Shown here: positions 1,027 through 19,704 of the stretch, one piece after another | How the letters are laid out: each line of letters opens with the position of its first letter | How positions within the stretch are numbered: the first letter of the stretch is position 1 | DNA from: Pedobacter schmidteae | GTDB lineage: Bacteria > Bacteroidota > Bacteroidia > Sphingobacteriales > Sphingobacteriaceae | Direction of reading: 5' to 3' | NCBI RefSeq assembly: GCF_900564155.1 | Contig: NZ_LS999839.1 | Location: 585,097 to 617,096 of the forward strand | Length of the DNA: 32,000 nt | The notes under the pieces: model-generated | Told to the model about the DNA's origin: nothing | Seen by the model: the letters and a program-made list of their open reading frames with translations, nothing else | Database searches by the model: none | Translations under genes and position numbers: made by a program

Positions 1027-1030
1027 TATT

Positions 1031-4342: not shown

Positions 4343-4470
4343 TATATACTTCCTTTTGTCCGCCTCCCTGATTCGCTGAAGAACCAGACAAGCGATTTGC
4401 AATATTAAATTTGCTGCATGAGCAAATCGCATACGCTTAAATAGCGCATTAAATTTCATACATTTGAATT

Positions 4471-4605
4471 TAGATCCCATTGCTGTGGTTAAAAGCAGTA
4501 TTGGGAATGGTTTGGAATTTAGTTGATTAATGTGTTCAGCATTATAGAATTAGCAATCCAACCTTTTACCTGGAGCGAGGCCAATCGTTCCAGGTTCTTT
4601 TTTGG
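4471..4605 (+). ncRNA. Candidate cis-antisense small RNA in the fecR-susC spacer (DonS-like position)
   Basis: Plus-strand TACATTTG (4459-4466) matches the Bacteroidetes -7 consensus TAnnTTTG. A strong hairpin plus T-tract follows 102 nt downstream (4568-4605). There is no plus-strand CDS anywhere nearby. The paralogous spacer has the same arrangement (15108-15237). No -33 TTTG element was found, and the 5' end is only a prediction. Confidence 0.3.
4568..4605 (+). terminator. Intrinsic-terminator-like hairpin plus T-tract oriented antisense to the operon
   Basis: ACCTGGAGCGA (4568-4578) pairs with TCGTTCCAGGT (4585-4595). The stem is 11 bp with one G-U that exists only in the plus-strand RNA. 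The loop is GGCCAA, followed by TCTTTTTTGG. On the minus strand the flank is TAAAAGG, which is not U-rich. Confidence 0.5.
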
Positions 4606-4622
4606 ATTACACTTATGTAAAA

Positions 4623-5744
4623 TTATGGCATAACTGTAACCCTCCTCCCTTCAATCTTAAAGTGAACGCCTCCGGTTTCTTCCAATATTGTTAATACTTG
4701 TGATAAGCTCCGGCTCCTCGAAATTTCGGCGCCAAAATCTATATCACTTACCTCACCTTTATAAATTACCTCAATGTCATACCAACGCTCCAACTTACGC
4801 ATGATACTATGGATGTTCTCATCTTTAAAGTTAAAATCACCATTCATCCAGGCCACCACCTGATCTACATCAGCATTAATGATCTTAACCCGATTGCCAA
4901 CCGAAGCCTGTTGCCCCGGTTTTAGCAGGTAATCCTTACCACCAACCGCTACCTTAACGCTACCTTCCAACAAGGTTGTTTTTATTGTGGCTTCACCTGC
5001 ATAACTGTTTACATTAAAATGCGTACCCAACACCTCTACCACCTGCTTATCAGTATGTACTTTAAACGGAAGCACTTTATTTTTCGCCACCTCAAAATAG
5101 GCCTCTCCGCTAAGCTGAATGTCTCGGGAGCCTCCGGTAAATGCTGTAGGGAAAGTTAAGGTGGAGGCAGAATTTAACCAAACCTTTGAACCATCAGGTA
5201 AAACGACCTGATACTGTCCGCCTTTAGGTGTTGACAACTTATTCATCACCGCAGCAGCACCCTGTTGATTTTGGTAAGTCAATTGTCCGTCAGCAGTTTT
5301 GTTAATCATCGCTTTACCCTCCCTTGCTAACAATCCATCTTTAGCATCATCAAGCACCACCTTCTTTCCGTCAGCAAGCACCAAAATGGCTTTGTTACCG
5401 CCAGGAGTTACATCATTCTTATAACGTGCTGCAATGGGTTGTTTTGACACATCACTACCCTTAAAATTAACAAAATACATTACAGCCGATACTATAAGTA
5501 ATACCGCAGCAGCAGCATATTTCAGCCATAAGCTCATCTTTTTGGGCGTATGCATTTCTTCATGTAAGGGCAAAGCCGCCCAAATGGCCTTACCGGCCCG
5601 GCCTAACTCTTCCTCATCCGGCATAAAATCACTTTCAGCAAGCATTTTGATGTGCCAGCTCTCTACAATAGCTTTTTCTTCCGGAGAACAGGTTCCCGAT
5701 TTATACCTATTGATTAAATCTTCTGAATTGTAGTTATGCTGCAT
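4623..5744 (-). CDS. FecR-family transmembrane anti-sigma factor
   Basis: 373 aa. There is an N-terminal cytoplasmic anti-sigma segment, then one TM helix (LWLKYAAAAVLLIVSAVMYFV). The periplasmic FecR-like domain (..GEAYFEVAKN..PF.V.T....V.VLGTHFNV..Y) is followed by a C-terminal ..FKIEGRRVTV tail typical of Bacteroidetes FecR homologs. It sits between the ECF sigma and the STN-SusC. Confidence 0.9.
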   Translation of the reverse strand: MQHNYNSEDLINRYKSGTCSPEEKAIVESWHIKMLAESDFMPDEEELGRAGKAIWAALPLHEEMHTPKKMSLWLKYAAAAVLLIVSAVMYFVNFKGSDVSKQPIAARYKNDVTPGGNKAILVLADGKKVVLDDAKDGLLAREGKAMINKTADGQLTYQNQQGAAAVMNKLSTPKGGQYQVVLPDGSKVWLNSASTLTFPTAFTGGSRDIQLSGEAYFEVAKNKVLPFKVHTDKQVVEVLGTHFNVNSYAGEATIKTTLLEGSVKVAVGGKDYLLKPGQQASVGNRVKIINADVDQVVAWMNGDFNFKDENIHSIMRKLERWYDIEVIYKGEVSDIDFGAEISRSRSLSQVLTILEETGGVHFKIEGRRVTVMP

Positions 5745-5833
5745 AAATTAAAACGGCCTGATATTGCCGCATCAGATATATGTAGGTTAAATAGCAGGGA
5801 GGGAGTAGAAGAAAAAAAATATTTTTTTGCGCG

Positions 5834-6415
5834 CTAAAAATTGACGCTGATAAAGATGGAAAACACCTTCAGTTTTCCTTTCAGAATTTTGACCGCATTG
5901 CTCACCTGTTTTTTTACGGTCAGGTCCGATACCCCAAGCTTATCGGCAATTTCTTTATGTGAAAATCCTTCATTTCTACTCATTTCAAACATTTCTCTCA
6001 TTTTTGGAGGCAAAGCGGCAACCTCCTTTTCAATAACCGCTACAAGTTCCCTTTCCCTCAGCTGGTCATCGGTAATATATTCCCCTTCTTTAATAAATTG
6101 CTGCAGGTAGGTTTGATAATCTGTCCTTACTTTTCTGTGATCCAACAGATCAAAAATCCGGTAACGTACAGAAGTATACAGGTAAAGAGAGAGGGAAGTT
6201 TTGATGGTTAGTTCAGTCCCTTTATGCCATAGATAGGTAAAAACCTCTTGAATAATGTCCTGGGCATCATCTTCATCGGCTAATATTTTTCGGGCATAAA
6301 CGTACATAATGGCCCAGTAGCGCTGGTAAATTTGTTCATAAGCATGCCTGTCCCCTGCCTTAAAAAGCAGTAGCAACTCATCATCTGGAATACGGCTTAA
6401 ATCCTGTTCTTGCAT
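5834..6415 (-). CDS. ECF-type (group 4, sigma-70 family) RNA polymerase sigma factor
   Basis: 193 aa. Region 2-like segment: ..AYEQIYQRYWAIMYVYARKIL.DEDDAQDIIQEVF..LW. Region 4 HTH: ALPPKMREMFEMSRNEGFSHKEIADKLGVSDLTVKKQVSNA. It is paralogous to 16646-17230. Confidence 0.9.
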   Translation of the reverse strand: MQEQDLSRIPDDELLLLFKAGDRHAYEQIYQRYWAIMYVYARKILADEDDAQDIIQEVFTYLWHKGTELTIKTSLSLYLYTSVRYRIFDLLDHRKVRTDYQTYLQQFIKEGEYITDDQLRERELVAVIEKEVAALPPKMREMFEMSRNEGFSHKEIADKLGVSDLTVKKQVSNAVKILKGKLKVFSIFISVNF

Positions 6416-6508: not shown

Positions 6509-6553
6509 AAAAATTGTCGACCGAACGGCAATCCTGCACAGTCCGGTCGACAA
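6509..6553 (-). terminator. Intrinsic terminator closing locus B
   Basis: In minus-strand RNA, UUGUCGACCG (from 6544-6553) pairs with CGGUCGACAA (from 6514-6523). This is a 10-bp perfect stem around a 20-nt loop, followed directly by UUUUU (6509-6513). It begins 11 nt after the TlpA-like stop codon. Confidence 0.6.
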
Positions 6554-6564
6554 GCGTTGATCAA

Positions 6565-7947
6565 TTAGTTCAACAGCGTTTTTTCCAGCAAAGCTTTTAA
6601 TGCCGGATCCGATGGCCTTGGCGAATCCACCGTCACAATTTTGCCTTGCTTATCGAATACCATAAAACGGGGAATTCCCTTAATTTTATAGTATTGAGCC
6701 AGGTCTCCCCACCCTGACGCAAACAACTGCAAACCTCCCAGCCCTTCTTCTTTAATCATTTTCAGCCACTTCTCCTTGTCTTTGGCCTCATCAACCGAAA
6801 TAGAAACTACCTGCACATCCGTTCCCTTCATCTCCTCTTCCAGCTTTTTCAGGTAAGGAATTTCGGCCTTGCAGGGCCCGCACCAGGTAGCCCATACATC
6901 CACCAGCACTACTTTCCCTTTCAAATCGGCCATAGATACCATTTTACCTTCTTTATCGGGATAGGAGAAATTAAAAGCCGCATCACCTTCCCTTAACTGC
7001 GCCAAAGGCGACATAATGTCCATCTGCTTCTTTTTCTGGCTTTTGGTGAGGATAAACTTACCGTATACATCCATCAACCCCTTAAAGTCATTAAAAGTGG
7101 TGTATCCTGATGCAGCACTCAAAACAAAGTCTCCTTTTAGGGTATCATTCGGTAAAAAATCAAGTGTAGCTTTCATGCCTTCTATTCCCCTCACATATTT
7201 CATACCCGCCTGTTGTTTGTTCGTATTGACCAAACCGTTCAAGGTACGCATACCCCATGGCTGGGCATAGGCTCCTGCCGCATGTCGGGCAAAATCGACC
7301 GCCTTTAAGGTAGCATAATAAGGGCTATATTGCGCAACCGTTGGGTGTGCGGAACGCGGTGTACCCAGGAAATTAGTTGCATAAAGCGCCATATCCCAGG
7401 CCATGTTCTGTTCCATTTGTTTATCAAACCGAGTGTTTCCGGTTGTCTTTCCATTCAAAAAGGCTTTTGATTTCCTGGCAATTTCTTCCAATAGCGGAAA
7501 GAAATCGACATAGGTACTTTGTGTTTTCATAAAGTTAACAGCCTTATTTTCTATAGGCATCACGAGGTTGTGCCACTGACTAAGCACAACATTTTCCTTC
7601 GAGTTCAATTTTCCGTTCAGCACATAGCCTGAGTCCAGAACTGTCAAAGAAAGCTCTTCTCCGCCCTTGAAGTAGAACTTATAATTGTCATTCGGACTGA
7701 CGGCCTCTCCGGTTCCAATCAGGTAAAAGCCTTCGTATTCCGGGTAAAACTTAAAGCCAAAACTTCCTTTATCCGTTGCCTTTGTTGAGGCTATTTCTAT
7801 AACCTGGCCTTCCTGTACCTTAAATACTTTTACCGGTTTAGCGGTATTCTTTTTCAGTAAACCAGTTACCTCAACCGCTTGCTGTGCAAAGACTGTAGTT
7901 GCGCTCAAAGTTAGCAGTACTGCACTGCATACATATTTAAAATTCAT
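6565..7947 (-). CDS. Secreted TlpA/AhpC-TSA-like thiol:disulfide oxidoreductase with a roughly 320-aa N-terminal region of unknown function
   Basis: 460 aa with a type-I signal peptide (..LSATTVFAQQ). The C-terminal thioredoxin fold has the active site VDVWATWCGPCKAEIP and a ..KGIPRFMVFDKQGKIV segment. The N-terminal part has no motif I recognise. Confidence 0.8.
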   Translation of the reverse strand: MNFKYVCSAVLLTLSATTVFAQQAVEVTGLLKKNTAKPVKVFKVQEGQVIEIASTKATDKGSFGFKFYPEYEGFYLIGTGEAVSPNDNYKFYFKGGEELSLTVLDSGYVLNGKLNSKENVVLSQWHNLVMPIENKAVNFMKTQSTYVDFFPLLEEIARKSKAFLNGKTTGNTRFDKQMEQNMAWDMALYATNFLGTPRSAHPTVAQYSPYYATLKAVDFARHAAGAYAQPWGMRTLNGLVNTNKQQAGMKYVRGIEGMKATLDFLPNDTLKGDFVLSAASGYTTFNDFKGLMDVYGKFILTKSQKKKQMDIMSPLAQLREGDAAFNFSYPDKEGKMVSMADLKGKVVLVDVWATWCGPCKAEIPYLKKLEEEMKGTDVQVVSISVDEAKDKEKWLKMIKEEGLGGLQLFASGWGDLAQYYKIKGIPRFMVFDKQGKIVTVDSPRPSDPALKALLEKTLLN

Positions 7948-7974
7948 TTTTTGTACTCTGTTTGATATAAAAGC

Positions 7975-9495
7975 TTAACGTTGTCTGTAGCTCACGCTCA
8001 CAATTTTCCCAAAACCACTGTAACCTTCTGTCAATGTCAGGTTCCCATTCAAAGATGGTACATCATAAAATTCCATCTTCCCGTTTTTATCGGCAGGTCC
8101 GGTTGGCAGATAACTGCACACCATCAGCTGATTGGCCTTATCTTTATAGTAAGTATTGCTGCTGCGTGCAAAATCCTGAAACTTCATCAGGCTGATTCTT
8201 TCGGTCCCCTTGTCAATCATCAGTTTAGTGGTTTTCAAAGAGGTATCGTACTCATATACCTTCCCCCCTACACAGTAAAACAGGTAACCAAATACCGGAC
8301 TCAATGCAAATTTTTCGGCCAGCGCAATGTCTGTACCCGTAATTTCTGCAAAATAATTATGTGCACCATTAAAAGGGCTAAAACGAACCAGGTAACTTTT
8401 ACCTTCCGTATTTTTCATCACCGCAAATATCTCCCCTCCATTATATGGTGTGTATTCCATATGCAACATATCCATCCCCATATTGCTGGTATTGAACAGG
8501 GCTGCCTGAGGTGCAGGAATAGTAGACACACTTCGTTCACTACCACTGTGTCTCAGAAATCGTTTTTTCTCGCTATCAAATAACACCGCGGTAGGACTAA
8601 AATTAGACAAGTTCATCGTCGCAGCAATAAACGGCGCTGCTTTAAAGGCTACTTTTTCTCCGGTTACCAGGTTAATAGGAACGCCATAATTAATTGAAAA
8701 CAAGCTATAATTAAAATAAACATTACCTCCAGAATACATATAGCATATCCCTCTATCTTCTTTCACCGGGGCCAGAAAGTCGGCATGAAAACCCGCAGGG
8801 ACACTGGCCACCATTTCGTAGGAGAGGTTAAAAGTATTTTTCCATCTAAAAGTCTCGGGATCCACACGGTTACTACTTTGATCAGTAGAAACCGATACTC
8901 CGTAAGTGGAAAAACTAAATGGATAGCAGGTGACATTTAAAGGTTTTCCCTTAAGCACCAGTTCCGATCCGGCCTGAGCCAGCACATCAACAATAGGTGT
9001 ATATACATTCTTAATTTTCGATACCATATCCAATCGGGCTGCTCCGTTCACATCATTCAACACCATCCAGCCTTCATAAATAGTCGTCTCTACTTTCAAC
9101 GGAATTTTGGTAGTGTATACCACGCCTGTTTTTTTATCTGTAACCGAATAGTATAATAAATAATTACCTGGCGGAATTTGAATTGCTGCATCCAGATTTC
9201 GGGTCGTAGCGATATTTTTACGCTGATCGGCAGGCAGTTGCAGATTTGCGTTTACATCAAATGCATACCATTGGTAACTAAAAGCATTTTCGTCACTGTT
9301 GTTTTCTTTACTGAATTTAAACTCAGGTGTAATCTGCAGCTTTTCACCTAGCAAAACGGTATACGTTTTACCTATACCACCAAAATTGACATCATTTAGT
9401 TCGGTATAATTATAATTACCCAGATCTTTTTTGCAAGCCGCAAAAAGCAGCAATACAACCAGGTATAGCGCCTGTTTTTTATATAGATTAAACAT
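7975..9495 (-). CDS. Lipoprotein of unknown function, consistent with the PKD-like family lipoprotein class found after DUF4843 in SusC/D loci
   Basis: 506 aa with a lipobox (LLLFAACKKD). An Ig/PKD-like N-terminal segment (..YQWYAFDV..PPGNYLLYYSVTDKKTGVVYTTKIPLKVE) is followed by a long beta-rich region. The family name comes from remembered locus architecture, not from a search. Confidence 0.6.
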   Translation of the reverse strand: MFNLYKKQALYLVVLLLFAACKKDLGNYNYTELNDVNFGGIGKTYTVLLGEKLQITPEFKFSKENNSDENAFSYQWYAFDVNANLQLPADQRKNIATTRNLDAAIQIPPGNYLLYYSVTDKKTGVVYTTKIPLKVETTIYEGWMVLNDVNGAARLDMVSKIKNVYTPIVDVLAQAGSELVLKGKPLNVTCYPFSFSTYGVSVSTDQSSNRVDPETFRWKNTFNLSYEMVASVPAGFHADFLAPVKEDRGICYMYSGGNVYFNYSLFSINYGVPINLVTGEKVAFKAAPFIAATMNLSNFSPTAVLFDSEKKRFLRHSGSERSVSTIPAPQAALFNTSNMGMDMLHMEYTPYNGGEIFAVMKNTEGKSYLVRFSPFNGAHNYFAEITGTDIALAEKFALSPVFGYLFYCVGGKVYEYDTSLKTTKLMIDKGTERISLMKFQDFARSSNTYYKDKANQLMVCSYLPTGPADKNGKMEFYDVPSLNGNLTLTEGYSGFGKIVSVSYRQR

Positions 9496-9517
9496 TGTTG
9501 TAAATTTTAAGTAAGCA

Positions 9518-10291
9518 TTATTGTACCCTTGGTCCCATGATCATTTCAGTCTTTTCATCCGCCTCATAAATGGTTTTATTATTGGCCTTCATTTCATTCA
9601 GATAGCGTTGCATAAAAGCGCCATAATAATTCAGTTTAGAAATGGAGGTAATCACGTAATCGTCCAGATCGCCGATATTTTTAATTTCGGCCACCTCGGC
9701 CAGCAGGAACAACTTTTTACGGCTAAATGGCCCCAGATAATCATCAAGCCAGGCCTTCGGCTTTTTAACTATATCATTTACCCATATGGTATGGGTAATA
9801 AAACTCAGCTTCTTTCCGGTAACAGTATTGATTACACGATCTTGCATTGGGGTATCAAAATTTTCATTGGCCTCCAGCTTCAGCCTGATGGTAAAAGTCT
9901 GGCTCAACATATCTGTTGTACGTTTCATTTTAATTTTGAGTGTATCCGCCACCTTATTAGCGGGAATTACAAAGCCAGAATTTAAAATTTCATAATGTTG
10001 CCCTACAATGGCTGTGGAAGTCGGATCAATGCTCAACTTAAAACCCCTTTCTCTATTTACAGGTTCTCCCGAAACCCGTACTACAAGCTTCATTACCGAA
10101 TCCATCAAACTGGCTTTTGCAAAGGCAAAGGAAATAGCCGTACTATCAACTCCTACATAATTTCTGGTATCAACGGCAGGAGCAAAATAAATCCCTGTCA
10201 AACCATCATAGGTTTTAAGTTCTTTTTTACATGCCACAAGTGCCGTACAGAGCAACAGGAACATGGCAATATATCTGTTATTATTCATCAT
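9518..10291 (-). CDS. Small lipoprotein of unknown function (DUF4843-like by position and size)
   Basis: 257 aa with a lipobox (LLLCTALVACKKE). It lies 12 nt downstream of SusD and 22 nt upstream of the next lipoprotein gene. The family call is by context only. Confidence 0.55.
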   Translation of the reverse strand: MMNNNRYIAMFLLLCTALVACKKELKTYDGLTGIYFAPAVDTRNYVGVDSTAISFAFAKASLMDSVMKLVVRVSGEPVNRERGFKLSIDPTSTAIVGQHYEILNSGFVIPANKVADTLKIKMKRTTDMLSQTFTIRLKLEANENFDTPMQDRVINTVTGKKLSFITHTIWVNDIVKKPKAWLDDYLGPFSRKKLFLLAEVAEIKNIGDLDDYVITSISKLNYYGAFMQRYLNEMKANNKTIYEADEKTEMIMGPRVQ

Positions 10292-10303
10292 CTTTCAATT
10301 AAA

Positions 10304-11743
10304 TTATCTAGGTGCTATTTCTGACAACGGCAATGGAAAAACATATTTTGTTGCATTCATGGTGATTGTTCCGTTTATAGTAAGCGGATTTGGAATGGCG
10401 GCCAGATTTTTCCGCTTATAGAAATACCACAATTGCCCTTCACCAAAAAACTCTTTCTGATATTCCTTTTGCAGCTCTGTAGCCAACACCGCGGTTACTG
10501 GCAAATCGGTCAGATTTCTTTTATTTCTTACGATGTTCAGATAGGTTACGTTCCCTTCACTCTCGGCGGCGATGTAATACATCTCACTTAGGCGAATTAA
10601 AGGCAGGGTATAACGGTATACATAAGATTTTTCAGGAATATCGGCGTATTTGAAAAAAGTACGGTAGTTTTTTCCACCAATACCGGTAAGTAACCACATC
10701 GGATTATAACGGTAATCATTTTCATTGTTTTCGAAAGTAGATTTTAACCGGGCGTCTGAAGGCGCAAGAATCTGGCTCTCTACTAAATCAGGTGAAAAAT
10801 AGTCCCTGTAATTATCATACATATCCAGACTCATCAAACCAAACAACAGCTCGGTACTGAATACCCGATCCGGATTTGCTTTATCATTGAGAATTTTAGC
10901 TGTTGTAATCCAGGGGAACTTTACGGCATTGTCAATTACTTCTTTTGCTGCCGTCAAAGCCGAGACTTTGTCTCCACGATAAAGATAGACCCTGGCCTGC
11001 AAGCCTTTTACTGCAAAATAATTGAGTCTATAGTTCCTTCCTGTAGTTAAGAAATTAATCGTACCGGTTGATGTAGGCGGATTTACCCCTCTGGTGCGCA
11101 CAGGATCATCGGCCAACAGCGTTTCGGCAGTTTTAAGATCACTGACGATCAAACTCATCACTTTATTTGCCGGCAAAATCTCGCTAACATCGGTTCCTGC
11201 TTTTGTATAATAAGGAATAGCCATTTTTAACGAATCAGCAGTAGCATATATCGGTCCATACATCCTTAATAAATCAAATTGCAGGTAAGCCCTCAATGCA
11301 TAGGCTTCTCCTTTTAATAACGACGCTGATTTTGTGTCCAGTACTCCCCTATAAGTATCCAGATTCTGAATAAACTTATTTACGTTTACTACATCAATAT
11401 AGGCGCTGGTCCAGATAAGATCCAGTGTTTTCTGTACCTTCTCGTCATTATAGGTATAAGTTTGATACTTTGTCAGATTATGCAATGCCCCTACATTATA
11501 ACACTGACCAAAGATATCTAGTGTAGTTCCTGTTAAGTTGGCACCATAAAGCTTGCTCTTACCCATATCCAGATAAATTCCATTCAATGCTTCGGCTATC
11601 CCATCAGGCGTCGAATAAAGCTGCTCTTCGGTAACTTTATCTTTCGGTTGTACATCCAGCCATTTGCTACAGGACATCACCGACAACAACAGCAGACCTA
11701 GTCCCACCGCTGTAAAAATATTTTTAAATGATTTCATCATCAT
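10304..11743 (-). CDS. SusD/RagB-family nutrient-binding outer-membrane lipoprotein
   Basis: The tracked ORF runs to 11893 but overlaps the SusC 3' end. The real start is probably MMMKSFKNIFTAVGLGLLLLSVMSCSKWLDV (ATG at 11743), 5 nt after the SusC stop (11749-11751). TPR-like SusD hallmarks are present: ..AYALRAYLQFDLLRMYG.., ..NYFAVKGLQARVYLY... Confidence 0.9.
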   Translation of the reverse strand: MMMKSFKNIFTAVGLGLLLLSVMSCSKWLDVQPKDKVTEEQLYSTPDGIAEALNGIYLDMGKSKLYGANLTGTTLDIFGQCYNVGALHNLTKYQTYTYNDEKVQKTLDLIWTSAYIDVVNVNKFIQNLDTYRGVLDTKSASLLKGEAYALRAYLQFDLLRMYGPIYATADSLKMAIPYYTKAGTDVSEILPANKVMSLIVSDLKTAETLLADDPVRTRGVNPPTSTGTINFLTTGRNYRLNYFAVKGLQARVYLYRGDKVSALTAAKEVIDNAVKFPWITTAKILNDKANPDRVFSTELLFGLMSLDMYDNYRDYFSPDLVESQILAPSDARLKSTFENNENDYRYNPMWLLTGIGGKNYRTFFKYADIPEKSYVYRYTLPLIRLSEMYYIAAESEGNVTYLNIVRNKRNLTDLPVTAVLATELQKEYQKEFFGEGQLWYFYKRKNLAAIPNPLTINGTITMNATKYVFPLPLSEIAPR

Positions 11744-11748
11744 AGGTT

Positions 11749-14700
11749 TTAAAAACTTGCATTTAAACTGAAAGAAAAAGATCGGGCAAATGGATATTCG
11801 ATACCACGTTCGCGCACAACAGACGAAATGCGAAATACATCGTTCATATATCCATTTAAGCGCAGTGCCGATAAGCCAAATTTCTTCAACCACTTTTGGG
11901 TCTGGAAATTATAGCCTAAGCTGATCGATTCGCCACTCAACACATTATCTGTCTGTACAAAACGGGACGACATTGGTGTGGTCTCCAACAGGCTTATTCC
12001 TTTAAACCGGGCAATATCACCAGGCTTTTTCCAGCGGTCATACAAGGCGCGTCTGTCTTGGTTGTTGGCCAGTTTCTCCATGCTGATATTCTCTACTTTA
12101 TCATATAAGGCACTGTTAAAAATATCCCGACCAAGGATATATCTCAGGTTCATATTAAAACTAAATCCCTTGTAGCTGATGGTATTGCTAAATACGCCCT
12201 CCACTTTGGGCTGACCATTTCCCACACGCCTGATATCGTTTACATCATATATAAAAGTATACTGTCCGTCTTGTTTTTGAAAAACTTCCATCCCTGTTCC
12301 AGGATCTATGCCCATAGAAGGAACGGCCCAAATGTCCTGCGGACTGTAACCATCCTTATAACGAATCAGACTTTTATTGGCTTGAGCCTTGGTATTCAAA
12401 GAGCCTAAGGTATTATTAAAGCCATCATATTTACTGGTATAAGCAGTTCCTGTAACACCTATGGTCCATACCATGCGGGATTCGGGCTTATAAACCGGCG
12501 AGTATTTTACCGTTGCTTCTATCCCTTTGATATCTAATGTCCCGGAATTGATCGGGTAAGAAGATATCCCGGTTGAAGAAGGCAGATCAATCGCTACCAC
12601 CAGGGGATCTGTTTTTTTCTGATATACATTGGCGTTGACTACCAAACGGCTTCCCAACATGACGATATCTGTGCCAATATTGGTTTGTACAGAATTTTGC
12701 CACCTCAGGTTCGCATTTCCCAACGCGTTCAATGTTACCCCCTGCCCAAATAAGTTGATATAAGAATCATATCCATAAGTAGAAATGGAAGAAACGGAGG
12801 CAAAATTCTGATTACCTGTATTTCCTCTGTTGGCATATAGTTTAAAAGTGTTTATCCAGGTCAGCTCCTTCATAAACTCCTCGCCATGTATGTTCCAACC
12901 CAGTCCTCCCACTACATAAGAAGTATATTTTTTGTTGGCCCCAAATGCTGTAGAACCATCATACCTGAATGAAAAATCGGCCAGATATTTATTTTTATAG
13001 GCGTAGTTGGCAGTAGCCAATATTGCGTTGGTACGTGTTTTACTAAATGCTGTAACCGGCCTCGAATTGGGCTTGTAGCTGTAGGCAAAATTTGGGTTAC
13101 CATTACTACTGGCAGGAAAACCTACAGCAGTAACCGCAATATTCTCATTATCATTATCGCGGATCTCACTTCGGATATTGGCAGTCAACGAATGGATCTC
13201 ATTAAACACTTTACCGTAAGTCAGCATCAGGTAACCATTATAACTAAAGTTATCGGTTTTACTGTTCCTGTAAGATCCCTTTTCAAAAAGATTGGTCTTA
13301 TCAAAAGTGGTGTTGAGTGGCGAAAGGAAATTTATCGCGGTCGTCACTCCTTTCTGTACCTGCACAGCCCCCTGGATTTTAAACTCCCTGTTCAGGTCTA
13401 TGATCATCTGCAGATTGTTTTGAATGGCCACATTTTTTGTATTGTTGACACTATTTAGTGAAGCATTATACATTGGATTATCAATCACGTATGAAAAAGT
13501 CTGATAATTAATACTCTCTTCCAGATAACGGCTATGCGGATTGTCTTTTCTGAAATAAGGATTGGCATTTGCAAAATTGGCAAAGGAACCATAAGGAGAT
13601 TCATCGGCTTTATAACCATTTATGTAAAGCTTATTGGAAAAATTGAATTTTCCGCGGCGATAAGAAAGGTCTATATTACCTGCCCAGTCCTGCCTGCCCG
13701 AGCCTTTCATTGCTCCTGTGGTATTTTTAAACGTTACGCCAACACCATAACGCAACGCATCATCTCCCCCGTCGGCATAAATAGAGTGCCGCTGACTAAA
13801 GCCTGTCTGCACGGGTACATTTAACCAATAGGTATTTACTCCCCGCTGTACTTCGGCTAAATGAACATTATAAAGGGAGTCGAGATCGCGCTGATAAGCA
13901 GGAATTGGATTAGCACCGATACCGCCGTAGGTATACCTACCCGAAAGCCTTTCAAACTCCAGCTTTTCGGCTGCATTCATCATATTGTAACCACTCAGGT
14001 CGGGCATTTCTATATTCAAATCGCTGCTGTAAGTCAGGTTCATTTGTCCCTGTCTGGGTTTAACGGTTTCAATAACCACCACACCGTTAGAAGCTTTTGA
14101 ACCATACATTGCCGTAGATGCAGCATCCTTAAGGATAGTAACCGATCCTATACGGTTCTGATTTAAATCGACAATCACGCGAAGCGAAGTTTCGAAACCG
14201 TCCAATATAAAAAGAGGTTGATTTGGATCGGAGGCGAACTGGTCCTGTAAGCTGGAAGAAATACTGGTTTTACCACGTATTTCTATATTTGGAAGTGCAT
14301 TTGGATTTGATCCAAGCTGATTGTTCTCCAACAGAATGAAAGAAGGATCTAATGCCCTCAAGCCCTGAATGATATTCTGGTTACCTACCGCTCGTAATTG
14401 CTCGCCGGTATATGACGCTGTAGCCCCGGTAAAACTACTTTTATTCCTGGTAATACCCGTACCTGTAATTACCACATCTTTCATATTGTTCTCTGCCAGT
14501 TCCAGTTTAACACTTAGTGGAGATTTTACACCCTTAACTTTAACTTCCCGACTCACATAACCGATATAGGAAATAACCAGAATATCGTTCTCACTAGCCG
14601 GCATGATTACAAAGCGGCCTTCGGCATTACTTACAGTACCACGACTGGCAGCTCCTTTTATTTTGATAGAAGCACCAGGTATAGGTGCATTATTTTCATC

Positions 14701-15042
14701 CAGCACCATACCACTTATCGGAAACTGCTGCTGTATAAAAAACTCAACCGGTTTATTTTTAATGATGATAGATCGGGCCTTGATTTCAAAAACCAAGTCC
14801 TGCCCTTCCAAGCATTCCTGTAAAGCATCCAACAATGGCGCATTACGCAAATCGATGGTAACCGGATGAACCGATTTCATCAGCGTTGCATCGTACATAA
14901 AATCATAACCTGTCTGATTTCTAATCTCCCTAAAAACTTTTTTTAAGGAAATATTCTTTTCTTTAAGTGTTACACGCTGGCCAAATGTGGCGGCACTAAC
15001 CTGCAACAAAGACATAGTCATCATAATTATGATCATTTTCAT
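11749..15042 (-). CDS. SusC/RagA-type TonB-dependent transporter with N-terminal STN signalling domain (paralog of 1031-4342)
   Basis: ORF 11749-15108. I prefer the start at Met23 (ATG 15042), which gives MKMIIIMMTMSLLQVSAATFGQ and aligns with the paralog's signal peptide. The start at 15108 cannot be excluded. STN segment: LKKVFREIRNQTGYDFMYDA..IIIKNK. Plug: DVVITG.., ILDGFE.., ILKDAASTAMYGSKASNGVVVIETVK. By eye it is highly similar to 1031-4342 across the plug region. Confidence 0.9.
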   Translation of the reverse strand: MKMIIIMMTMSLLQVSAATFGQRVTLKEKNISLKKVFREIRNQTGYDFMYDATLMKSVHPVTIDLRNAPLLDALQECLEGQDLVFEIKARSIIIKNKPVEFFIQQQFPISGMVLDENNAPIPGASIKIKGAASRGTVSNAEGRFVIMPASENDILVISYIGYVSREVKVKGVKSPLSVKLELAENNMKDVVITGTGITRNKSSFTGATASYTGEQLRAVGNQNIIQGLRALDPSFILLENNQLGSNPNALPNIEIRGKTSISSSLQDQFASDPNQPLFILDGFETSLRVIVDLNQNRIGSVTILKDAASTAMYGSKASNGVVVIETVKPRQGQMNLTYSSDLNIEMPDLSGYNMMNAAEKLEFERLSGRYTYGGIGANPIPAYQRDLDSLYNVHLAEVQRGVNTYWLNVPVQTGFSQRHSIYADGGDDALRYGVGVTFKNTTGAMKGSGRQDWAGNIDLSYRRGKFNFSNKLYINGYKADESPYGSFANFANANPYFRKDNPHSRYLEESINYQTFSYVIDNPMYNASLNSVNNTKNVAIQNNLQMIIDLNREFKIQGAVQVQKGVTTAINFLSPLNTTFDKTNLFEKGSYRNSKTDNFSYNGYLMLTYGKVFNEIHSLTANIRSEIRDNDNENIAVTAVGFPASSNGNPNFAYSYKPNSRPVTAFSKTRTNAILATANYAYKNKYLADFSFRYDGSTAFGANKKYTSYVVGGLGWNIHGEEFMKELTWINTFKLYANRGNTGNQNFASVSSISTYGYDSYINLFGQGVTLNALGNANLRWQNSVQTNIGTDIVMLGSRLVVNANVYQKKTDPLVVAIDLPSSTGISSYPINSGTLDIKGIEATVKYSPVYKPESRMVWTIGVTGTAYTSKYDGFNNTLGSLNTKAQANKSLIRYKDGYSPQDIWAVPSMGIDPGTGMEVFQKQDGQYTFIYDVNDIRRVGNGQPKVEGVFSNTISYKGFSFNMNLRYILGRDIFNSALYDKVENISMEKLANNQDRRALYDRWKKPGDIARFKGISLLETTPMSSRFVQTDNVLSGESISLGYNFQTQKWLKKFGLSALRLNGYMNDVFRISSVVRERGIEYPFARSFSFSLNASF

Positions 15043-15119
15043 AATTAATAATAGTTTGGGTGGTAGCCAAAGATTGGGCATACCTAGTTTAAAAGCATAT
15101 TTATTCATACTTTTGATTG

Positions 15120-15237
15120 GTTTGAGTTGATACAGAATGGTTGGACTAATTGTTCTTCTCTGTCTGCAAAGGACAGGGAATGGTCACCTCAAACTTTTGC
15201 CGGATTGTGCTTCCAACACCTTCCGGCTTTTGTATTT
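15120..15237 (+). ncRNA. Candidate cis-antisense small RNA in the second fecR-susC spacer
   Basis: Plus-strand TACTTTTG (15108-15115) matches TAnnTTTG. A hairpin plus T-tract follows 84 nt downstream (15199-15237). No plus-strand CDS is nearby. The geometry matches 4459-4605. The 5' end is only predicted. Confidence 0.3.
15199..15237 (+). terminator. Intrinsic-terminator-like hairpin plus T-tract oriented antisense to the operon
   Basis: GCCGGA (15199-15204) pairs with TCCGGC (15222-15227). An inner GTG/CAC (15207-15209 with 15217-15219) follows a 2x2 internal loop. The downstream flank is TTTTGTATTT. The outer stem differs from the paralogous hairpin at two positions, and both changes are compensated on the opposite arm. 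Confidence 0.45.
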
Positions 15238-15323
15238 AAGGCCACCTTTGTCTTGACACTAAGGTTTTGGTAATTGTTTTTTCATTGTTTTTAGATTTGG
15301 TTTGTTAGTTGTTGGGTTAATAT

Positions 15324-16472
15324 TTATTTGAGTACATTAATTTTTCTGCCTTCTATTTTAAAGTGAACCTTACCGGTTGATTCAATAATTGCTAACACTT
15401 CTCCAATACTTTTTGAACGTGAAACCAATCCTTCGAGCGTAATATTCTTTGGAACATTTTCCTGATAAACAATCTGTACATCATACCACCGGGCTATTTT
15501 CCGCATCATACTTTCCAGGTTTTCCTCCTTAAACACAAAATCCCCGTTTTTCCAGTCGATCTCGTCTTCAGCTTCTACTGCAACTACCTTTATCCCATCC
15601 TGTTTCAACTCCGACTGCTGTCCCGGTTTTAAGATAACCACAGAAATGCCATTTACTTTGGCTTTTACCTGTACGCTACCCTCCAGCAAAGTTGTCTTGG
15701 TACTGCCATCATCGGCATAGCTTTTCACATTAAAATGTGTGCCCAAAACCATTACCTCTTGTTCGGCCGTAGCCACAATGAATGGCTTACGATCTGCTTT
15801 TGCAATCTCAAAGTAGGCTTCTCCATTTAATTCTACTCTTCTTTCCCTTGACGAATTAATCTGAGCCGGGTATCTTAAAGAAGAGGCTGCATTTAACCAT
15901 ACCCTGGAACCGTCGGGCAAAAGGATCTGGTATTGCCCACCTTTAGGGGTTGCAATGGTATTATAAGCAATCCTTTGGGGATCTTCTACCGCCGAAGTCT
16001 CTGCGACACGATAAATCAGCTGCCCATCGGCTGTTTTAGTAATATGGATTCCCGACTGAACCCCCACGTTTCCTGTGTGCGCAGCTGTCAGGTCAATTAT
16101 TTTACCATTTGCCAATGTTAAAGTGGCCTTATTCCCTCCAGGAATAATAGTGGCCTGTGCCATGCCAGCGGCCTCCTCCATTACCTTTGTATCGTGGGAT
16201 AGGTAAAAAAACAAGCCTGCCGAAAGTGTCATCAGCACTGCGACAGCAGCTGCAATGGTTGGCCAACTATGAAATTTCACTGGCGATTTCTGCTCTTTCT
16301 GTAGATTCAGCAAAACCCCATCAAGGTCCGCTGTACGCTCTTCTAATCCTAATTCGGATGTTCCGGCTTCTTGATAAGTCAGGTACCAGCTTTCCAACAA
16401 GGCTTTTTCAGCCTCAGTAGCCTGCCCCTTTCTGTAATTGTCCAGTATGGTTTTTATTTCTTCTTCCTGCAT
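15324..16472 (-). CDS. FecR-family transmembrane anti-sigma factor (paralog of 4623-5744)
   Basis: 382 aa with a TM helix (TIAAAVAVLMTLSAGLFFYL). FecR-like core: ..GEAYFEIAKADRKPFIV......V.VLGTHFNVKSY. The same C-terminal ..VHFKIEGRKINV tail is present. Confidence 0.9.
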   Translation of the reverse strand: MQEEEIKTILDNYRKGQATEAEKALLESWYLTYQEAGTSELGLEERTADLDGVLLNLQKEQKSPVKFHSWPTIAAAVAVLMTLSAGLFFYLSHDTKVMEEAAGMAQATIIPGGNKATLTLANGKIIDLTAAHTGNVGVQSGIHITKTADGQLIYRVAETSAVEDPQRIAYNTIATPKGGQYQILLPDGSRVWLNAASSLRYPAQINSSRERRVELNGEAYFEIAKADRKPFIVATAEQEVMVLGTHFNVKSYADDGSTKTTLLEGSVQVKAKVNGISVVILKPGQQSELKQDGIKVVAVEAEDEIDWKNGDFVFKEENLESMMRKIARWYDVQIVYQENVPKNITLEGLVSRSKSIGEVLAIIESTGKVHFKIEGRKINVLK

Positions 16473-16645
16473 AATTCTTTAAAAGCCGGAATGGCTTTAT
16501 ATATAGTAAGACAAGATCATTTGACTGAGGAGGTATCCTTTCTTAAAATAAATTTATTTTTTTGTTTACATCACTTTAATGGCTAGATCGCCATCCTGAA
16601 TTTGTCATGCTGGCGCAAGCTAGTATCGGCATCTCCCATATGCAT

Positions 16646-17230
16646 TCAAAACCTGAATATATAAAGCAGATAAATGACCAATCCGAGTCTCTTTCTGAGC
16701 ACTCTAAGCGCATTTGTCATTTGTTTTTTTACAGTCTGTTCGGTAGTTCCCAAACGTTCTGCAATTTCCTTATGGCTAAGAAAGCCTTTGCGGCTCAGCT
16801 CAAAAACCTCTCGCATCCTTGGAGGCAAAGCAGCCACTTCCTTTTCAATCAATTCTCTTAACTGATTTTCTCTCACCCGGTGATCGGCAATCACAGTATC
16901 CTGATCAACAAAAGACTGAATGGAAACAATATATTTATTTCGCACTTCTTTACGGACCATCTGGTTCAGGATATAATTTCTTAAACTGGTATACAAATAA
17001 CCAGATAGATTAACATTCACATCCAAGCTTTCCCGTTTAGCCCATAGCATGGTAAATATTTCCTGAATGGTATCCTGTGCTTCTTCCCTGTTACGGGTTT
17101 TATTCCAGGCATGATTATGCAACACAAACTTATAGCGATGATAGATTTGCTCATATGCCGACCGATCTCCTGCTTTAAGTAGCTGAAGTAACTCTGCATC
17201 CGGAATAAGTGGTAAATCTGAATCTTGCAT
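16646..17230 (-). CDS. ECF-type RNA polymerase sigma factor (paralog of 5834-6415)
   Basis: The tracked ORF runs to 17266. I prefer the start MQDSDLPLIPDAELLQLLKAGDRSAYEQIY (ATG 17230) for two reasons. It aligns residue for residue with MQEQDLSRIPDDELLLLFKAGDRHAYEQIY of the paralog. It also places the shared TATTATTG box at the same 33-nt distance. Region 4: ALPPRMREVFELSRKGFLSHKEIAERLGTTEQTVKKQMTNA. Confidence 0.9.
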   Translation of the reverse strand: MQDSDLPLIPDAELLQLLKAGDRSAYEQIYHRYKFVLHNHAWNKTRNREEAQDTIQEIFTMLWAKRESLDVNVNLSGYLYTSLRNYILNQMVRKEVRNKYIVSIQSFVDQDTVIADHRVRENQLRELIEKEVAALPPRMREVFELSRKGFLSHKEIAERLGTTEQTVKKQMTNALRVLRKRLGLVIYLLYIFRF

Positions 17231-17263
17231 TTGGTCCCTGGATATTGAAATGAATTCCAAATG

Positions 17264-17271
17264 CAATAATA
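17264..17271 (-). promoter_or_regulatory. Candidate -7 promoter box TATTATTG upstream of the second ECF sigma gene
   Basis: The minus strand reads ACTTATTATTGCATTTGG. The box ends 33 nt upstream of the ATG at 17230, the same spacing as at 6449-6456. Confidence 0.3.
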
Positions 17272-17357: not shown

Positions 17358-17388
17358 TCGTCATCCTGAAATAAATTCAGGATGACGA
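17358..17388 (-). terminator. Intrinsic terminator of the GH2/GH63-like/kinase-lyase operon
   Basis: A perfect 13-bp stem: TCGTCATCCTGAA (17358-17370) pairs with TTCAGGATGACGA (17376-17388), with a 5-nt loop. It starts 12 nt after the TGA stop at 17401-17403. On the minus strand it is followed by TCGCTTTTATGAT. Confidence 0.65.
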
Positions 17389-17400
17389 ATAGTACAAACA

Positions 17401-19704
17401 TCAACTCCTTGCCCCAAGGACCTGGTCCAGATTGTACAGGAATTCATCGGCATTTGTTTTATTGAACAGCATCGGCGGCTTAATTTTTAAAACATTATGC
17501 AATGGCCCGTCGGTACTCAGTAAAAACCCCCGGTTCCTCATTTCTTCTACAATCTCATCTATTTCCGGTACCGCAGGCTCCAATGTTTCCCGATTTCTAA
17601 CCAATTCGGCCCCTACAAATAGGCCCTTACCTCGTACATCACCTATAATTGGATATTTTTCCATCAGGTCCTCCAATCCCTTCAAAAGGTAATTACCAGT
17701 TTCTAATGCCCTCTGTTGCAAGTCCTCCTCTTGAATTACCTGCATTACCGCAATTCCTGTCTCCATAGACACCGGATTTCCACCATAAGTATTAAAATAC
17801 TCCATTCCATTGTTAAAAGCTGCAGCAAGCTCCTCGGTTAAAACTACCGCAGCAAGCGGATGTCCATTCCCAATTGGCTTACCCAACACCACTATGTCCG
17901 GCTCCACGCCCTGCAATTCAAAACCCCAGAATTTTTCGCCCACCCGACCAAAGCCAACTTGCACCTCATCGGCAATGCACAAACCGCCGGCAGCCCTTAC
18001 ATGACGATATACTTCTTTCAGATAACCCTCGGGCAAAGGAATCTGTCCACCAACGCCCAACAACGTCTCACAGATAAAAGCAGCTATTCCGGTTTCTTTG
18101 GCCGCCAGCGTTTTAATGATTTCTGCTATATCCAAAGCGTATTTTGCTCCTGCTTCTTTGTCTCCATAACGATAAGTTCCTCTGTACAGATCGGGGTTCA
18201 TACCTTTATGAATATAAGGTTGTTGTCCGGTGCCACCCTTACCATCAAATTTATAGGGACTTAGCTCCATAGCTACTGTAGACGTACCGTGGTATGCATG
18301 ATCCAATACAATAACGTCCTTTTGTTTGGTAAAATGCCTGCTGATCCTGATAGCCAGGTCATTTGCCTCGCTGCCTGAATTACAGAAATAACAAACCTTT
18401 AACTTAGGCGGCAAACTTGAGGTGATCATTCTGGCATAACTAACCAGGCTGTCGTGCAGGTATCGGGTATTGGTATTGAGCTTTGCCAATTGCTTTTGCA
18501 TGGCTTTGACCACCACCGGGTGGCAATGTCCCACATGGCTTACGTTATTTACGCAGTCGATATAAGTATCACCTTTATCATCGTACAGGTATTGCAGGGC
18601 ACCTCTGCCAATTTTTAAATTCTTTTTATAGCTGATACTCAGGTTAGCTCCCACCACCTGTTTTCTTTCTTGTTTCAGGTCCTCATCGGCTGTTTCCGTC
18701 CCAAGTACCGGCGCATAACCACAACATATATTAAATCTATTTTGTGCCTGAAGCGGATTGATACGGATCCACTGGTACAAAAGTGTCCAGGCGTCGGCTT
18801 CCGAAATAAAGTGATGCGCATTATTGCTCTTACTCCTTTGCAGAGCAGAGGTGGTTACACTCATACACAAGCGGGCCGCGATAAGGTAATAGAGTACCGA
18901 AAGTTCGGTCTCTGCCAACGGATAAACCTGGTGATAGCTACGCAGTAATAACTCTGCAACAACCAATGGATCTGATCTTTTAAACAAGGCATAAGTACAA
19001 GCGACAGCTACATTATTGATCAGCTGACTTTCTACCATATCACCAAAATCAATGATTCCACTCAATAGCCCATTCGTGATCAGCACATTATAGTCGTTTG
19101 CGTCATTATGGATCACCGCTTTGCGCAGGTGTGGTAACAATGGCACAACCTCCATTTCGTACTGCAGCAGAAAATAAGCGACCATCGTTCTTTTTTCATG
19201 ATCTTTGATATGATGCAGATGCTGGCGACAATGCATAACCTGCGCCAGGTCCCACTCGATAAAACGATAAGTTGCAGGATGAGCAAAATCTTCCATCTGC
19301 AAATCCATACGGGCCAATCCCGCGCCCAGACTTTCAAATACAGTATCCGGACCTACTTTCAAATCTCCCAGAAAAGTCCCCTCCAGGTAGGATAACACTC
19401 TTAAGTACAAAGTTTTTCCATCCAGATCAAGTATTGTTTGTCCATCACCTTCCGCATTGAGATACACATCCTGTATCGGGATACTTTTGTCTTTCCGTTT
19501 TAAATGCTCCATCGCCTTAAGCTGGGCATCCAGGAAATAAGGATCGGCAGGATCGACGCTCACTTTAGCGATAAACTTGTTGCCTGTGTTATCCTGAAGC
19601 AAAAAATTCTGATCTTCATACCCTTGTATTTTATCAATTCGGGTCAATTCAAGATCGTAATATTGCTGGAGCAGTTCTTTAATATATTGTTCGGAAAGTA
19701 TCAT
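17401..19704 (-). CDS. Bifunctional fusion: N-terminal hydroxylysine-kinase-like APH-fold kinase plus C-terminal AGXT2L-type phospho-lyase (class-III aminotransferase fold, PLP-dependent)
   Basis: 767 aa with no signal peptide. N-terminal half: ..GYEDQNFLL.., catalytic loop [13 protein letters not shown], metal-binding IIDFGDM. These match my recollection of human HYKK/AGPHD1 (YDDQNF, INHGDLNDHNILI, ILDFGDM). C-terminal half: [86 protein letters not shown]. These match remembered ETNPPL/PHYKPL (AGXT2L1/2) blocks almost block for block. Confidence 0.85.

Follow-up and report, generated by a model that had tools for sequence, protein, structure and literature searches.

SusCD systems are nearly always interpreted as glycan importers; to our knowledge, only a few non-glycan cases have been characterised, namely RagAB (peptides), the BfUbb importer (protein toxin) and PusCD (phospholipids). 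Here we analysed one SusCD locus at positions 6509–17271 of a 32,000-nucleotide stretch of Pedobacter schmidteae DNA (assembly GCF_900564155.1, contig NZ_LS999839.1, positions 585,097–617,096), which is referred to as the window hereafter. The locus is a SusCD importer controlled by a sigma factor of the extracytoplasmic function (ECF) type; its cargo is composed of periplasmic disulfide reductases and two uncharacterised lipoproteins, and the locus type is unstudied but widespread. With moderate confidence, based on gene content and conservation, we favour ECF-induced SusCD import of disulfide-bonded peptides or small proteins, which are non-glycan substrates, followed by DsbD-fed periplasmic reduction.

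RagAB of Porphyromonas gingivalis (PDB 6sli) is a SusCD-type oligopeptide importer (Madej et al., 10.1101/755678). Like the window locus, it is a SusC/SusD-type transporter with a lipoprotein lid and has no carbohydrate-active enzymes (CAZymes); RagA is a clear sequence relative of the window SusC (E = 1.7e-40). Different from the window locus, RagAB lacks the DUF4843 and PKD_2 lipoproteins, a linked thioredoxin and, within the locus, an ECF/FecR/STN circuit; its substrate is proteinaceous, whereas a peptide substrate is a prediction for the window locus. In the part of PMC7782687 that cites Glenwright 2017, a peptide is described in the binding cavity of BT2261–2264 of Bacteroides thetaiotaomicron (PDB 5fq6–8). 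This operon also encodes SusC, SusD and two extra lipoproteins and contains no CAZymes. However, BT2261 and BT2262 are not matched by the profiles of DUF4843 and PKD_2, nor by the fold of PKD_2, and BT2264 is only a distant relative of the window SusC (1e-11). RagAB and the peptide-bound BT2261–2264 indicate that SusCD-type peptide importers exist, which counts in favour of peptide import by the window locus.

BtuK1 and BtuK2 (BT1486 and BT1487) are surface lipoproteins from a cobamide-uptake operon of B. thetaiotaomicron, and BtuK1 binds cobalamin very tightly (PMC12751083). Like PKD_2, they combine an Ig-like domain with a β-propeller after a lipidated N-terminus, and they are encoded beside a TonB-dependent transporter. 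Different from PKD_2, the BtuK proteins have BtuB and BtuG rather than SusCD as partners, are under riboswitch control and have no reductase beside them; common descent is not supported by profiles. As for regulation, Martens et al. reportedly described in 2009 Bacteroides polysaccharide utilisation loci (PULs) that are controlled by ECF sigma and anti-sigma factors, with trans-envelope signalling through an N-terminal extension of SusC. The window locus shares with them the ECF sigma, the FecR-type anti-sigma and the STN-bearing SusC. However, the Bacteroides ECF PULs carry glycoside hydrolases (GHs) and target host O-glycans, whereas the only enzyme of the window locus is a disulfide reductase.

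An earlier note on this DNA, made from the sequence without database searches, knew of no assigned function for the gene set. The literature that we searched agrees: it holds no functional study of either lipoprotein family or of this locus type, and no characterised orthologue with a glycan substrate was found. DUF4843 appears there in unrelated contexts only, and the Pfam accessions and NCBI names of both lipoprotein families are absent. The search returned nothing that links TlpA-type proteins to SusC/D loci and no relevant 'peptide/protein utilisation loci', and the RagAB and PusCD papers make no mention of such loci.

Composition and conservation of the cassette

The locus contains seven co-oriented genes, all on the minus strand. 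The ECF-type sigma-70 factor (16646–17230, 194 residues from ATG) matches the Sigma70_r2, Sigma70_r4_2 and ECF models; it scores 80.5 bits against TIGR02937 (cut-off 42.9) and 126.2 bits against TIGR02985 (cut-off 126.4). It is followed by one FecR-type anti-sigma factor (15324–16472, 382 residues, PF04773 76.9 bits, FecR_C PF16344 73.8 bits) with one transmembrane segment. The SusC/RagA-type TonB-dependent transporter (11749–15108, 1119 residues) scores 522 bits with TIGR04056 (cut-off 368), 48.8 bits with TIGR04057 (cut-off 46.2) and 35.7 bits with Plug; its STN domain (PF07660, residues 68–117, 31.4 bits, cut-off 28.4) precedes the carboxypeptidase-regulatory-like domain (CarbopepD_reg_2). 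The sigma factor, the anti-sigma factor and the STN-bearing transporter are adjacent and co-oriented, as in FecI/FecR-type circuits, and signalling is predicted from these genes. Directly 3′ of susC lies the gene of the SusD/RagB-type lid lipoprotein (10304–11743, 479 residues, lipobox SVMSC), which scores above the cut-off with both PF14322 (SusD-like_3, 55.5 bits) and PF07980 (SusD_RagB, 29.5 bits).

Three cargo genes follow, with spacers of 12, 22 and 27 nucleotides in the order from susD to the last gene, as the earlier note had read them. They encode the DUF4843 lipoprotein (9518–10291, 257 residues, PF16132 83.2 bits), with lipobox LVAC followed by KKE; the PKD_2 or 'PKD-like family' lipoprotein (7975–9495, 506 residues, lipobox FAAC, PF16407 97.7 bits); and one exported three-domain thiol:disulfide reductase (6565–7947, 460 residues, Redoxin 75 bits). 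Family models thus recovered each gene family, in the order that the note had given. Its statement that CAZymes and peptidases are absent also held, in that no such Pfam or NCBIfam model matches any of the seven proteins. A classical PUL combines a SusC/SusD pair with CAZymes, and here the pair stands without the enzymes. Instead, the locus has the arrangement by which we define the cassette, SusC-SusD-DUF4843-PKD_2 followed by an exported CxxC thioredoxin-fold protein.

The DUF4843 family was found in 50 of 81 sampled Pedobacter genomes, with 0–17 copies per genome, the maximum being that of P. schmidteae; in a loose screen of a phylum-wide sample, 4 of 301 genomes exceeded the cut-off for the family, in a patchy pattern. 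PKD_2 orthologues of ∼40% identity are present in Sphingobacteriia, Flavobacteriia, Cytophagia and Chitinophagia, where they are annotated solely as 'PKD-like family lipoprotein'. By PKD_2 orthology (protein homologue search, then the encoding contigs) we chose eight external loci from eight genera of these four Bacteroidota classes, namely Aestuariibaculum, Echinicola, Chitinophaga, Flavobacterium, Sphingobacterium, Niabella, Gaetbulibacter and a Solitalea-like contig. All eight keep the sigma-FecR-SusC-SusD-DUF4843-PKD_2 order, so the DUF4843/PKD_2 subclass is conserved over four classes, and all eight have one to four thioredoxin-fold genes directly after PKD_2. The same-strand run contains a peptidase in six of the eight loci (Asp_protease_2 in four, plus M16, M90 and Trypsin_2) and a CAZyme in none; full-length DsbD occurs in one, as the last gene of the Flavobacterium run. 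The thioredoxin slot holds different subfamilies, the Redoxin/TlpA type with or without DUF4369 and the Thioredoxin_7/DsbH type. Since the linkage survives non-orthologous replacement of the thioredoxin subfamily, we argue for a functional link and not one of mere inheritance. The most complete cassette was seen in Flavobacterium (JAUTAX010000001, 11565–20338 of the locus), where PKD_2, one DsbH-like thioredoxin, Asp_protease_2, one 460-residue Redoxin protein, one 938-residue M16 peptidase and full-length DsbD follow each other on one strand.

The earlier note had spoken of this gene set as recurrent in Bacteroidota annotations. Besides the external loci, 17 copies are present in the P. schmidteae genome itself: each of its 17 DUF4843 genes lies inside a sigma-FecR-SusC-SusD-DUF4843-PKD_2 cassette. 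A thioredoxin-fold gene belongs to the same-strand run of 15 of them; the 16th cassette has it two genes further on, and the 17th just upstream of its sigma gene. Additional cargo of the paralogous cassettes includes S46, two Met-zincins, an Asp protease, an amidohydrolase, a PAD_porph deiminase and NamZ. The version in the window is the minimal cassette, with one reductase and no dedicated peptidase. The PKD_2 paralogues within the genome are mutually ∼22% identical, compared to ∼40% for the orthologues in other classes, which indicates that the paralogue lineages are old or horizontally spread; probably, each lineage has its own specificity. In one paralogous cassette NamZ (exo-β-N-acetylmuramidase) follows the Asp protease, and in another the PAD_porph-family deiminase is accompanied by an AraC/GyrI regulator. 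Such cargo hints that some paralogues may target peptidoglycan-derived or arginine-rich peptides.

Linkage between SusC and thioredoxin-fold genes extends beyond these cassettes. For the genome-wide counts, open reading frames were called mechanically (first ATG, at least 90 residues, greedy overlap removal) and classified by phmmer with the window proteins as queries, which biases the SusD counts in favour of this subfamily. The 160 full-length SusC genes comprise 17 that are linked to DUF4843, 44 others with a thioredoxin-fold gene within the first four genes downstream, and 99 with neither. Thioredoxin cargo is therefore present at 61 of the 160 loci; more than one third of the SusC loci of this genome hold periplasmic disulfide reductases instead of CAZymes. 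FecR control was found for 54 of the 61 thioredoxin-linked loci, compared to 49 of the 99 others. Of the 91 thioredoxin-fold genes, 45 are directly downstream of SusD, and these numbers indicate that the proteins cannot all be cytochrome-maturation factors. CxxC is retained in 90 of the 91, mostly as WCxPC. All 41 thioredoxin cargo proteins that were examined individually contain CxxC, and ∼38 of them carry signals of the signal-peptidase-I type rather than lipoboxes. In total, the genome encodes ∼125 ECF sigma factors and 114 FecR proteins beside the 91 thioredoxin-fold genes.

In a SusC tree (FastTree, last 800 residues of each SusC), the 17 DUF4843-linked SusCs, including that of the window, form one clade with a support of 97–100. 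Thioredoxin linkage requires 19 state changes on this tree, compared to 48.8 ± 2.8 (minimum 41) with shuffled labels; as these are paralogues of one genome, the clustering is a sign of lineage coherence and not of independent events.

The cargo itself was compared by a Pfam census under a 300-nucleotide gap rule, which defined 40 thioredoxin-only loci. In 21 of them nothing follows SusD beyond one or two DUF4369-Redoxin proteins of ∼380 residues; the other 19 hold 32 scattered extra genes, among which are two stand-alone DsbD_N, one GH65 and one DPP-IV. By comparison, the 107 cargo genes in a random sample of 40 other SusCD loci encode typical PUL cargo, with GH2, GH18, GH95, GHL10, surface glycan-binding proteins (SGBPs), BT_3987-like lipoproteins, phosphatases and a few peptidases. 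GH and SGBP cargo, usual in the other SusCD loci, is lacking from the thioredoxin-linked ones, where the depletion of CAZymes is clear. Beside the two stand-alone DsbD_N (nDsbD) genes, we noticed two DUF4625 genes in thioredoxin-only loci; the DsbD_N genes suggest a local electron relay to the reductases.

The two lipoproteins and the reductase

The AlphaFold2 model of PKD_2 (pLDDT 90.3, pTM 0.82) consists of an Ig-like β-sandwich followed by a β-propeller, in line with the Ig/PKD-like N-terminus that the earlier note had read from the sequence. Its top fold match in the PDB, by Foldseek, is BtuK2/BT1487 (4r5o), with E = 7.5e-13 over the full length, 13% identity and template modelling (TM) scores of 0.44–0.50. 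The sequence profile of PKD_2 gave no match to BT1486 or BT1487, and the similarity between the PKD_2 model and BtuK2 is best described as an architectural resemblance at the fold level. BT2261 and BT2262 were considered as homologues of the two lipoproteins and rejected: profiles of DUF4843 and PKD_2 miss the 5fq6–8 chains at E-values up to 1–10, and these chains are outside the top 50 fold matches of the PKD_2 model. Single-sequence PDB searches with both lipoproteins found nothing; in a profile search DUF4843 showed one weak Calx-β-like stretch (E = 0.64).

According to hhalign, DUF4843 and PKD_2 have in common solely the signal peptide, the lipobox and one short stretch of the pattern C-K-K-D/E ... 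Y, which stands directly after the lipidated Cys in both families (probability 86%, 36 columns); examples are located at 10220–10291 (DUF4843) and 9420–9495 (PKD_2) of the window. This common stretch may be a surface-sorting or complex-docking signal. After the lipidated Cys, the acidic content of the lipoproteins is at least that of the SusD control, as would fit export to the surface.

The earlier note had described the 460-residue protein as secreted, with a TlpA-like C-terminus bearing WCGPC. The C-terminal part of this description was borne out, as the Redoxin/AhpC-TSA/Thioredoxin domain covers residues 320–444 and WCGPC is at residues 355–359. An export signal is also present; it is of the signal-peptidase-I type (VFA|QQ), and 'secreted' is better replaced by Sec-exported, with a predicted periplasmic location. 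The active site is VDVWATWCGPCK, accompanied by the cis-Pro segment GIPRF and one buried Asp upstream. Together with the cis-Pro, this is the canonical reducing thioredoxin motif, and a reductant role is predicted. W-C-G-P-C, buried Asp, cis-Pro loop and export signal, as well as a DsbD in the genome, are the sequence features of the reductant class of thioredoxin-fold proteins.

In the model of the reductase (pLDDT 90.9), a β-sandwich (residues 25–110) is followed by a helical domain (117–316) and the thioredoxin fold (320–460). The closest solved domain is 2lja (8e-38). The C-terminal domain shares with TlpA, ResA, CcmG (DsbE) and Etrx proteins the fold (TM 0.8–0.9, including 4ka0, ResA and TlpA), the CxxC, the cis-Pro and the signal peptide. 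Different from these proteins, the reductase has a 310-residue N-domain of β-sandwich and helical parts, and it is encoded in a nutrient-import operon, not with cytochrome or Sco genes, as one of a family of ∼90 in the genome. Its scores against the equivalog models TlpA NF047696 (85.8 bits, cut-off 230), ResA NF002854 (75.6, cut-off 170) and DsbE TIGR00385 (51.7, cut-off 123) are far below the cut-offs; therefore, orthology to these maturation factors is rejected, although the fold class is the same. The fold search of the full model returned thioredoxin domains only and no solved analogue of the N-domain. The N-terminal β-sandwich is DUF4369-like, and by hhalign (probability 100%, E = 1.3e-46) the protein belongs with the DUF4369-Redoxin proteins in other cassettes, of which it is an extended form. 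An exhaustive search found the N-domain in 250 clusters, nearly always as residues 1–310 of proteins of 440–480 residues, which means that a thioredoxin domain is fused to it in nearly all cases.

Possible clients of the reductase were sought through the cysteines of its neighbours. When the 17 cassettes are compared, cysteines are not conserved in SusC, and the lipobox Cys is the sole conserved one in SusD, DUF4843 and PKD_2. The FecR proteins have on average 0.3 periplasmic cysteines and no conserved Cys column. As neither the import machine nor its regulator contains conserved cysteines to act on, the imported substrate is the likeliest and most economical client of the reductase.

These data can be arranged into the following putative mechanism. 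DUF4843, PKD_2 and SusD would capture the ligand at the cell surface, as suggested by their lipoboxes, the common sorting motif after the Cys and the fold resemblance of PKD_2 to one transporter-associated surface lipoprotein. SusC, whose family assignment is firm, would then take in the ligand with TonB energy. Because STN/FecR/ECF circuits are well established, ligand occupancy is expected to be signalled through the STN domain of SusC to FecR, which would release the ECF sigma factor and raise transcription of the operon, resulting in self-induction. In the periplasm, the 460-residue reductase would open the disulfides of the substrate. The genome contains two DsbD-type genes (DsbD_TM), and one of the two DsbD proteins may keep the reductase reduced. 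Finally, housekeeping or locus-encoded peptidases would degrade the opened substrate.

Substrate class and rival explanations

The earlier note had proposed a non-glycan, possibly disulfide-containing ligand. The absence of CAZymes and the persistent thioredoxin link agree with this proposal as far as computation reaches; the substrate itself is a prediction. Several observations weigh against import of disulfide-bonded peptides. Compared to solved structures, the window SusC is no nearer to RagA than to the glycan SusCs 8aa4 (1.5e-50) and 5t3r (5.9e-42), and it is remote from BT2264; the SusD gave no match to RagB in the same comparison. Similarity of SusC or SusD to solved structures was therefore discarded as a means of telling peptide from glycan importers, as it does not separate them. 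The lipoproteins have no homology to BT2261 or BT2262 that profiles, or for PKD_2 the fold search, could detect, and the nearest fold match of PKD_2 comes from a cobalamin-uptake operon, which would fit a small-molecule ligand equally well. The cell-surface location of DUF4843 and PKD_2 is a prediction from sequence features, and co-transcription of the reductase gene is presumed from its 27-nucleotide spacer. Finally, the link to peptidases is weak: they are present in 4 of the 17 DUF4843 cassettes, 1 of the 40 thioredoxin-only loci and ∼3–4 of the 40 other loci, and the locus in the window carries none. This modest enrichment lowers our confidence in the peptide part of the proposal.

The rival that survives best holds that the substrate is a scarce small non-peptide, such as a cofactor, a metal chelate, a low-molecular-weight disulfide or an oxidised thiol, which is captured by high-affinity lipoproteins and released or activated by reduction. 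It draws on the structural match of PKD_2 to BtuK2, whose paralogue BtuK1 binds cobalamin with sub-nanomolar affinity, and on the 21 of 40 thioredoxin-only loci that encode reductases alone, where no polymer-degrading step is apparently needed; in addition, TonB-dependent transporters classically take up scarce small molecules. However, the BtuK2 match is confined to the fold level, at 13% identity and with no profile match, and peptidases accompany the PKD_2 orthologues in six of the eight external loci. Moreover, as many as 61 different small nutrients that bear disulfides and have a regulator each are hard to name, and oligomers are the typical use of SusD-lidded transporters. We therefore regard a small non-peptide substrate as unlikely.

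Alternatively, the locus could be an ordinary PUL for a glycan or glycoconjugate, with its degradative enzymes encoded elsewhere and the thioredoxin-fold protein being a co-located general factor of envelope redox or oxidative-stress defence. The window SusC is indeed marginally nearest to glycan SusCs in the PDB, NamZ and GH65 occur in one paralogous cassette and one thioredoxin-only locus, respectively, and ECF/anti-sigma control is classical for host-glycan PULs. Against this, the thioredoxin gene is retained right after PKD_2 in all eight distant loci and in almost every one of the 17 paralogues, despite replacement of its subfamily, and 45 of the 91 thioredoxin-fold genes lie directly after SusD, which would not be expected of general envelope factors. 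The runs also contain no CAZymes, whereas other SusCD loci of this genome often carry them. On this evidence, an ordinary PUL has a slim chance of being correct. That the reductase serves the import machine or its regulator rather than the cargo, for instance through disulfide isomerisation in SusC, SusD or the lipoproteins or through a redox switch that controls FecR, would fit the commoner FecR control of thioredoxin-linked loci and the maturation of specific envelope proteins by TlpA, ResA and CcmG, but we reject it as highly improbable, because the conserved cysteines that it requires are absent from these proteins, FecR included.

Import of disulfide-bonded peptides or small proteins with subsequent reduction remains our preferred reading. 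If the substrate is confirmed, Bacteroidota of soils and hosts would be seen to forage for nutrients in a second major way; two DUF-type families of lipoproteins would gain a function, and the dozens of 'TlpA family' genes per genome would be explained. As 17 separately regulated paralogues are available in one culturable organism, the question is directly testable.

A wider reading is tentative, and we hold it to be rather doubtful as a whole: reductase-coupled SusCD importers may form a large unrecognised class in Bacteroidota, each tuned by an ECF sensor of its own to a different family of disulfide-stabilised, protease-resistant mini-proteins that are imported whole and unlocked by periplasmic reduction. 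Such mini-proteins could come from fungi, plants or other microbes and might include defensins, hydrophobins, knottins, protease inhibitors and cysteine-rich effectors. If true, 'reductive foraging' would stand beside glycan foraging and give access to a recalcitrant pool of soil nitrogen and sulfur.

Gene boundaries and the neighbouring cassette

The operon is closed by one intrinsic terminator on the minus strand (6509–6553), which the earlier note had placed there as well. It has a 13-bp GC-rich stem followed by TTTTT, a folding free energy of -24.5 kcal/mol and a z-score of -3.5; none of 200 shuffled sequences was equally stable. Its loop is long, hence it is overlooked by a simple pattern scan. 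The 5′ boundary of the locus is marked by a terminator-like hairpin of the upstream operon (17358–17388, minus strand), with a 13-pair stem (6 GC) and a T-rich tail. Further upstream, window positions 17401–19704 encode one fusion of APH kinase and class-III aminotransferase (767 residues), which belongs to a separate SusCD locus.

Two of the gene starts deserve comment. The mechanical open reading frame of SusD begins at GTG and overlaps susC by 145 nucleotides; the true start is almost certainly MMMK at 11743, after which the lipobox is located, and the susC–susD spacer is then 5 nucleotides. For the ECF sigma factor, an alternative TTG start at 17266 would give 206 residues. The Bacteroidota -7 box TAnnTTTG shows no enrichment in the window and is missing from the relevant spacers on the coding strand; it is thus uninformative on promoters here. 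Plus-strand TAnnTTTG boxes facing susC were observed at 15108–15115 and 4459–4466. The fecR–susC spacers are long, with 215 nucleotides (15109–15323) in this locus and 142 nucleotides (4481–4622) in the tandem cassette described below.

Immediately downstream of the locus lies one paralogous cassette in tandem (1–6415, minus strand). Among the 17 cassettes of the genome, it is the locus at 584218. It contains sigma (5834–6415) and FecR (4623–5744), both identified by Pfam matches, followed by SusC (1031–4480) and SusD (1–1026); its DUF4843, PKD_2 and 461-residue TlpA-like genes continue past the left edge of the window. The 461-residue reductase, from genome positions 575000–585096, is 65% identical to the 460-residue reductase of the window, and the SusCs of the two cassettes are mutual nearest paralogues. 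Judged by these sequence relationships, the locus and its neighbour look like a tandem duplication.

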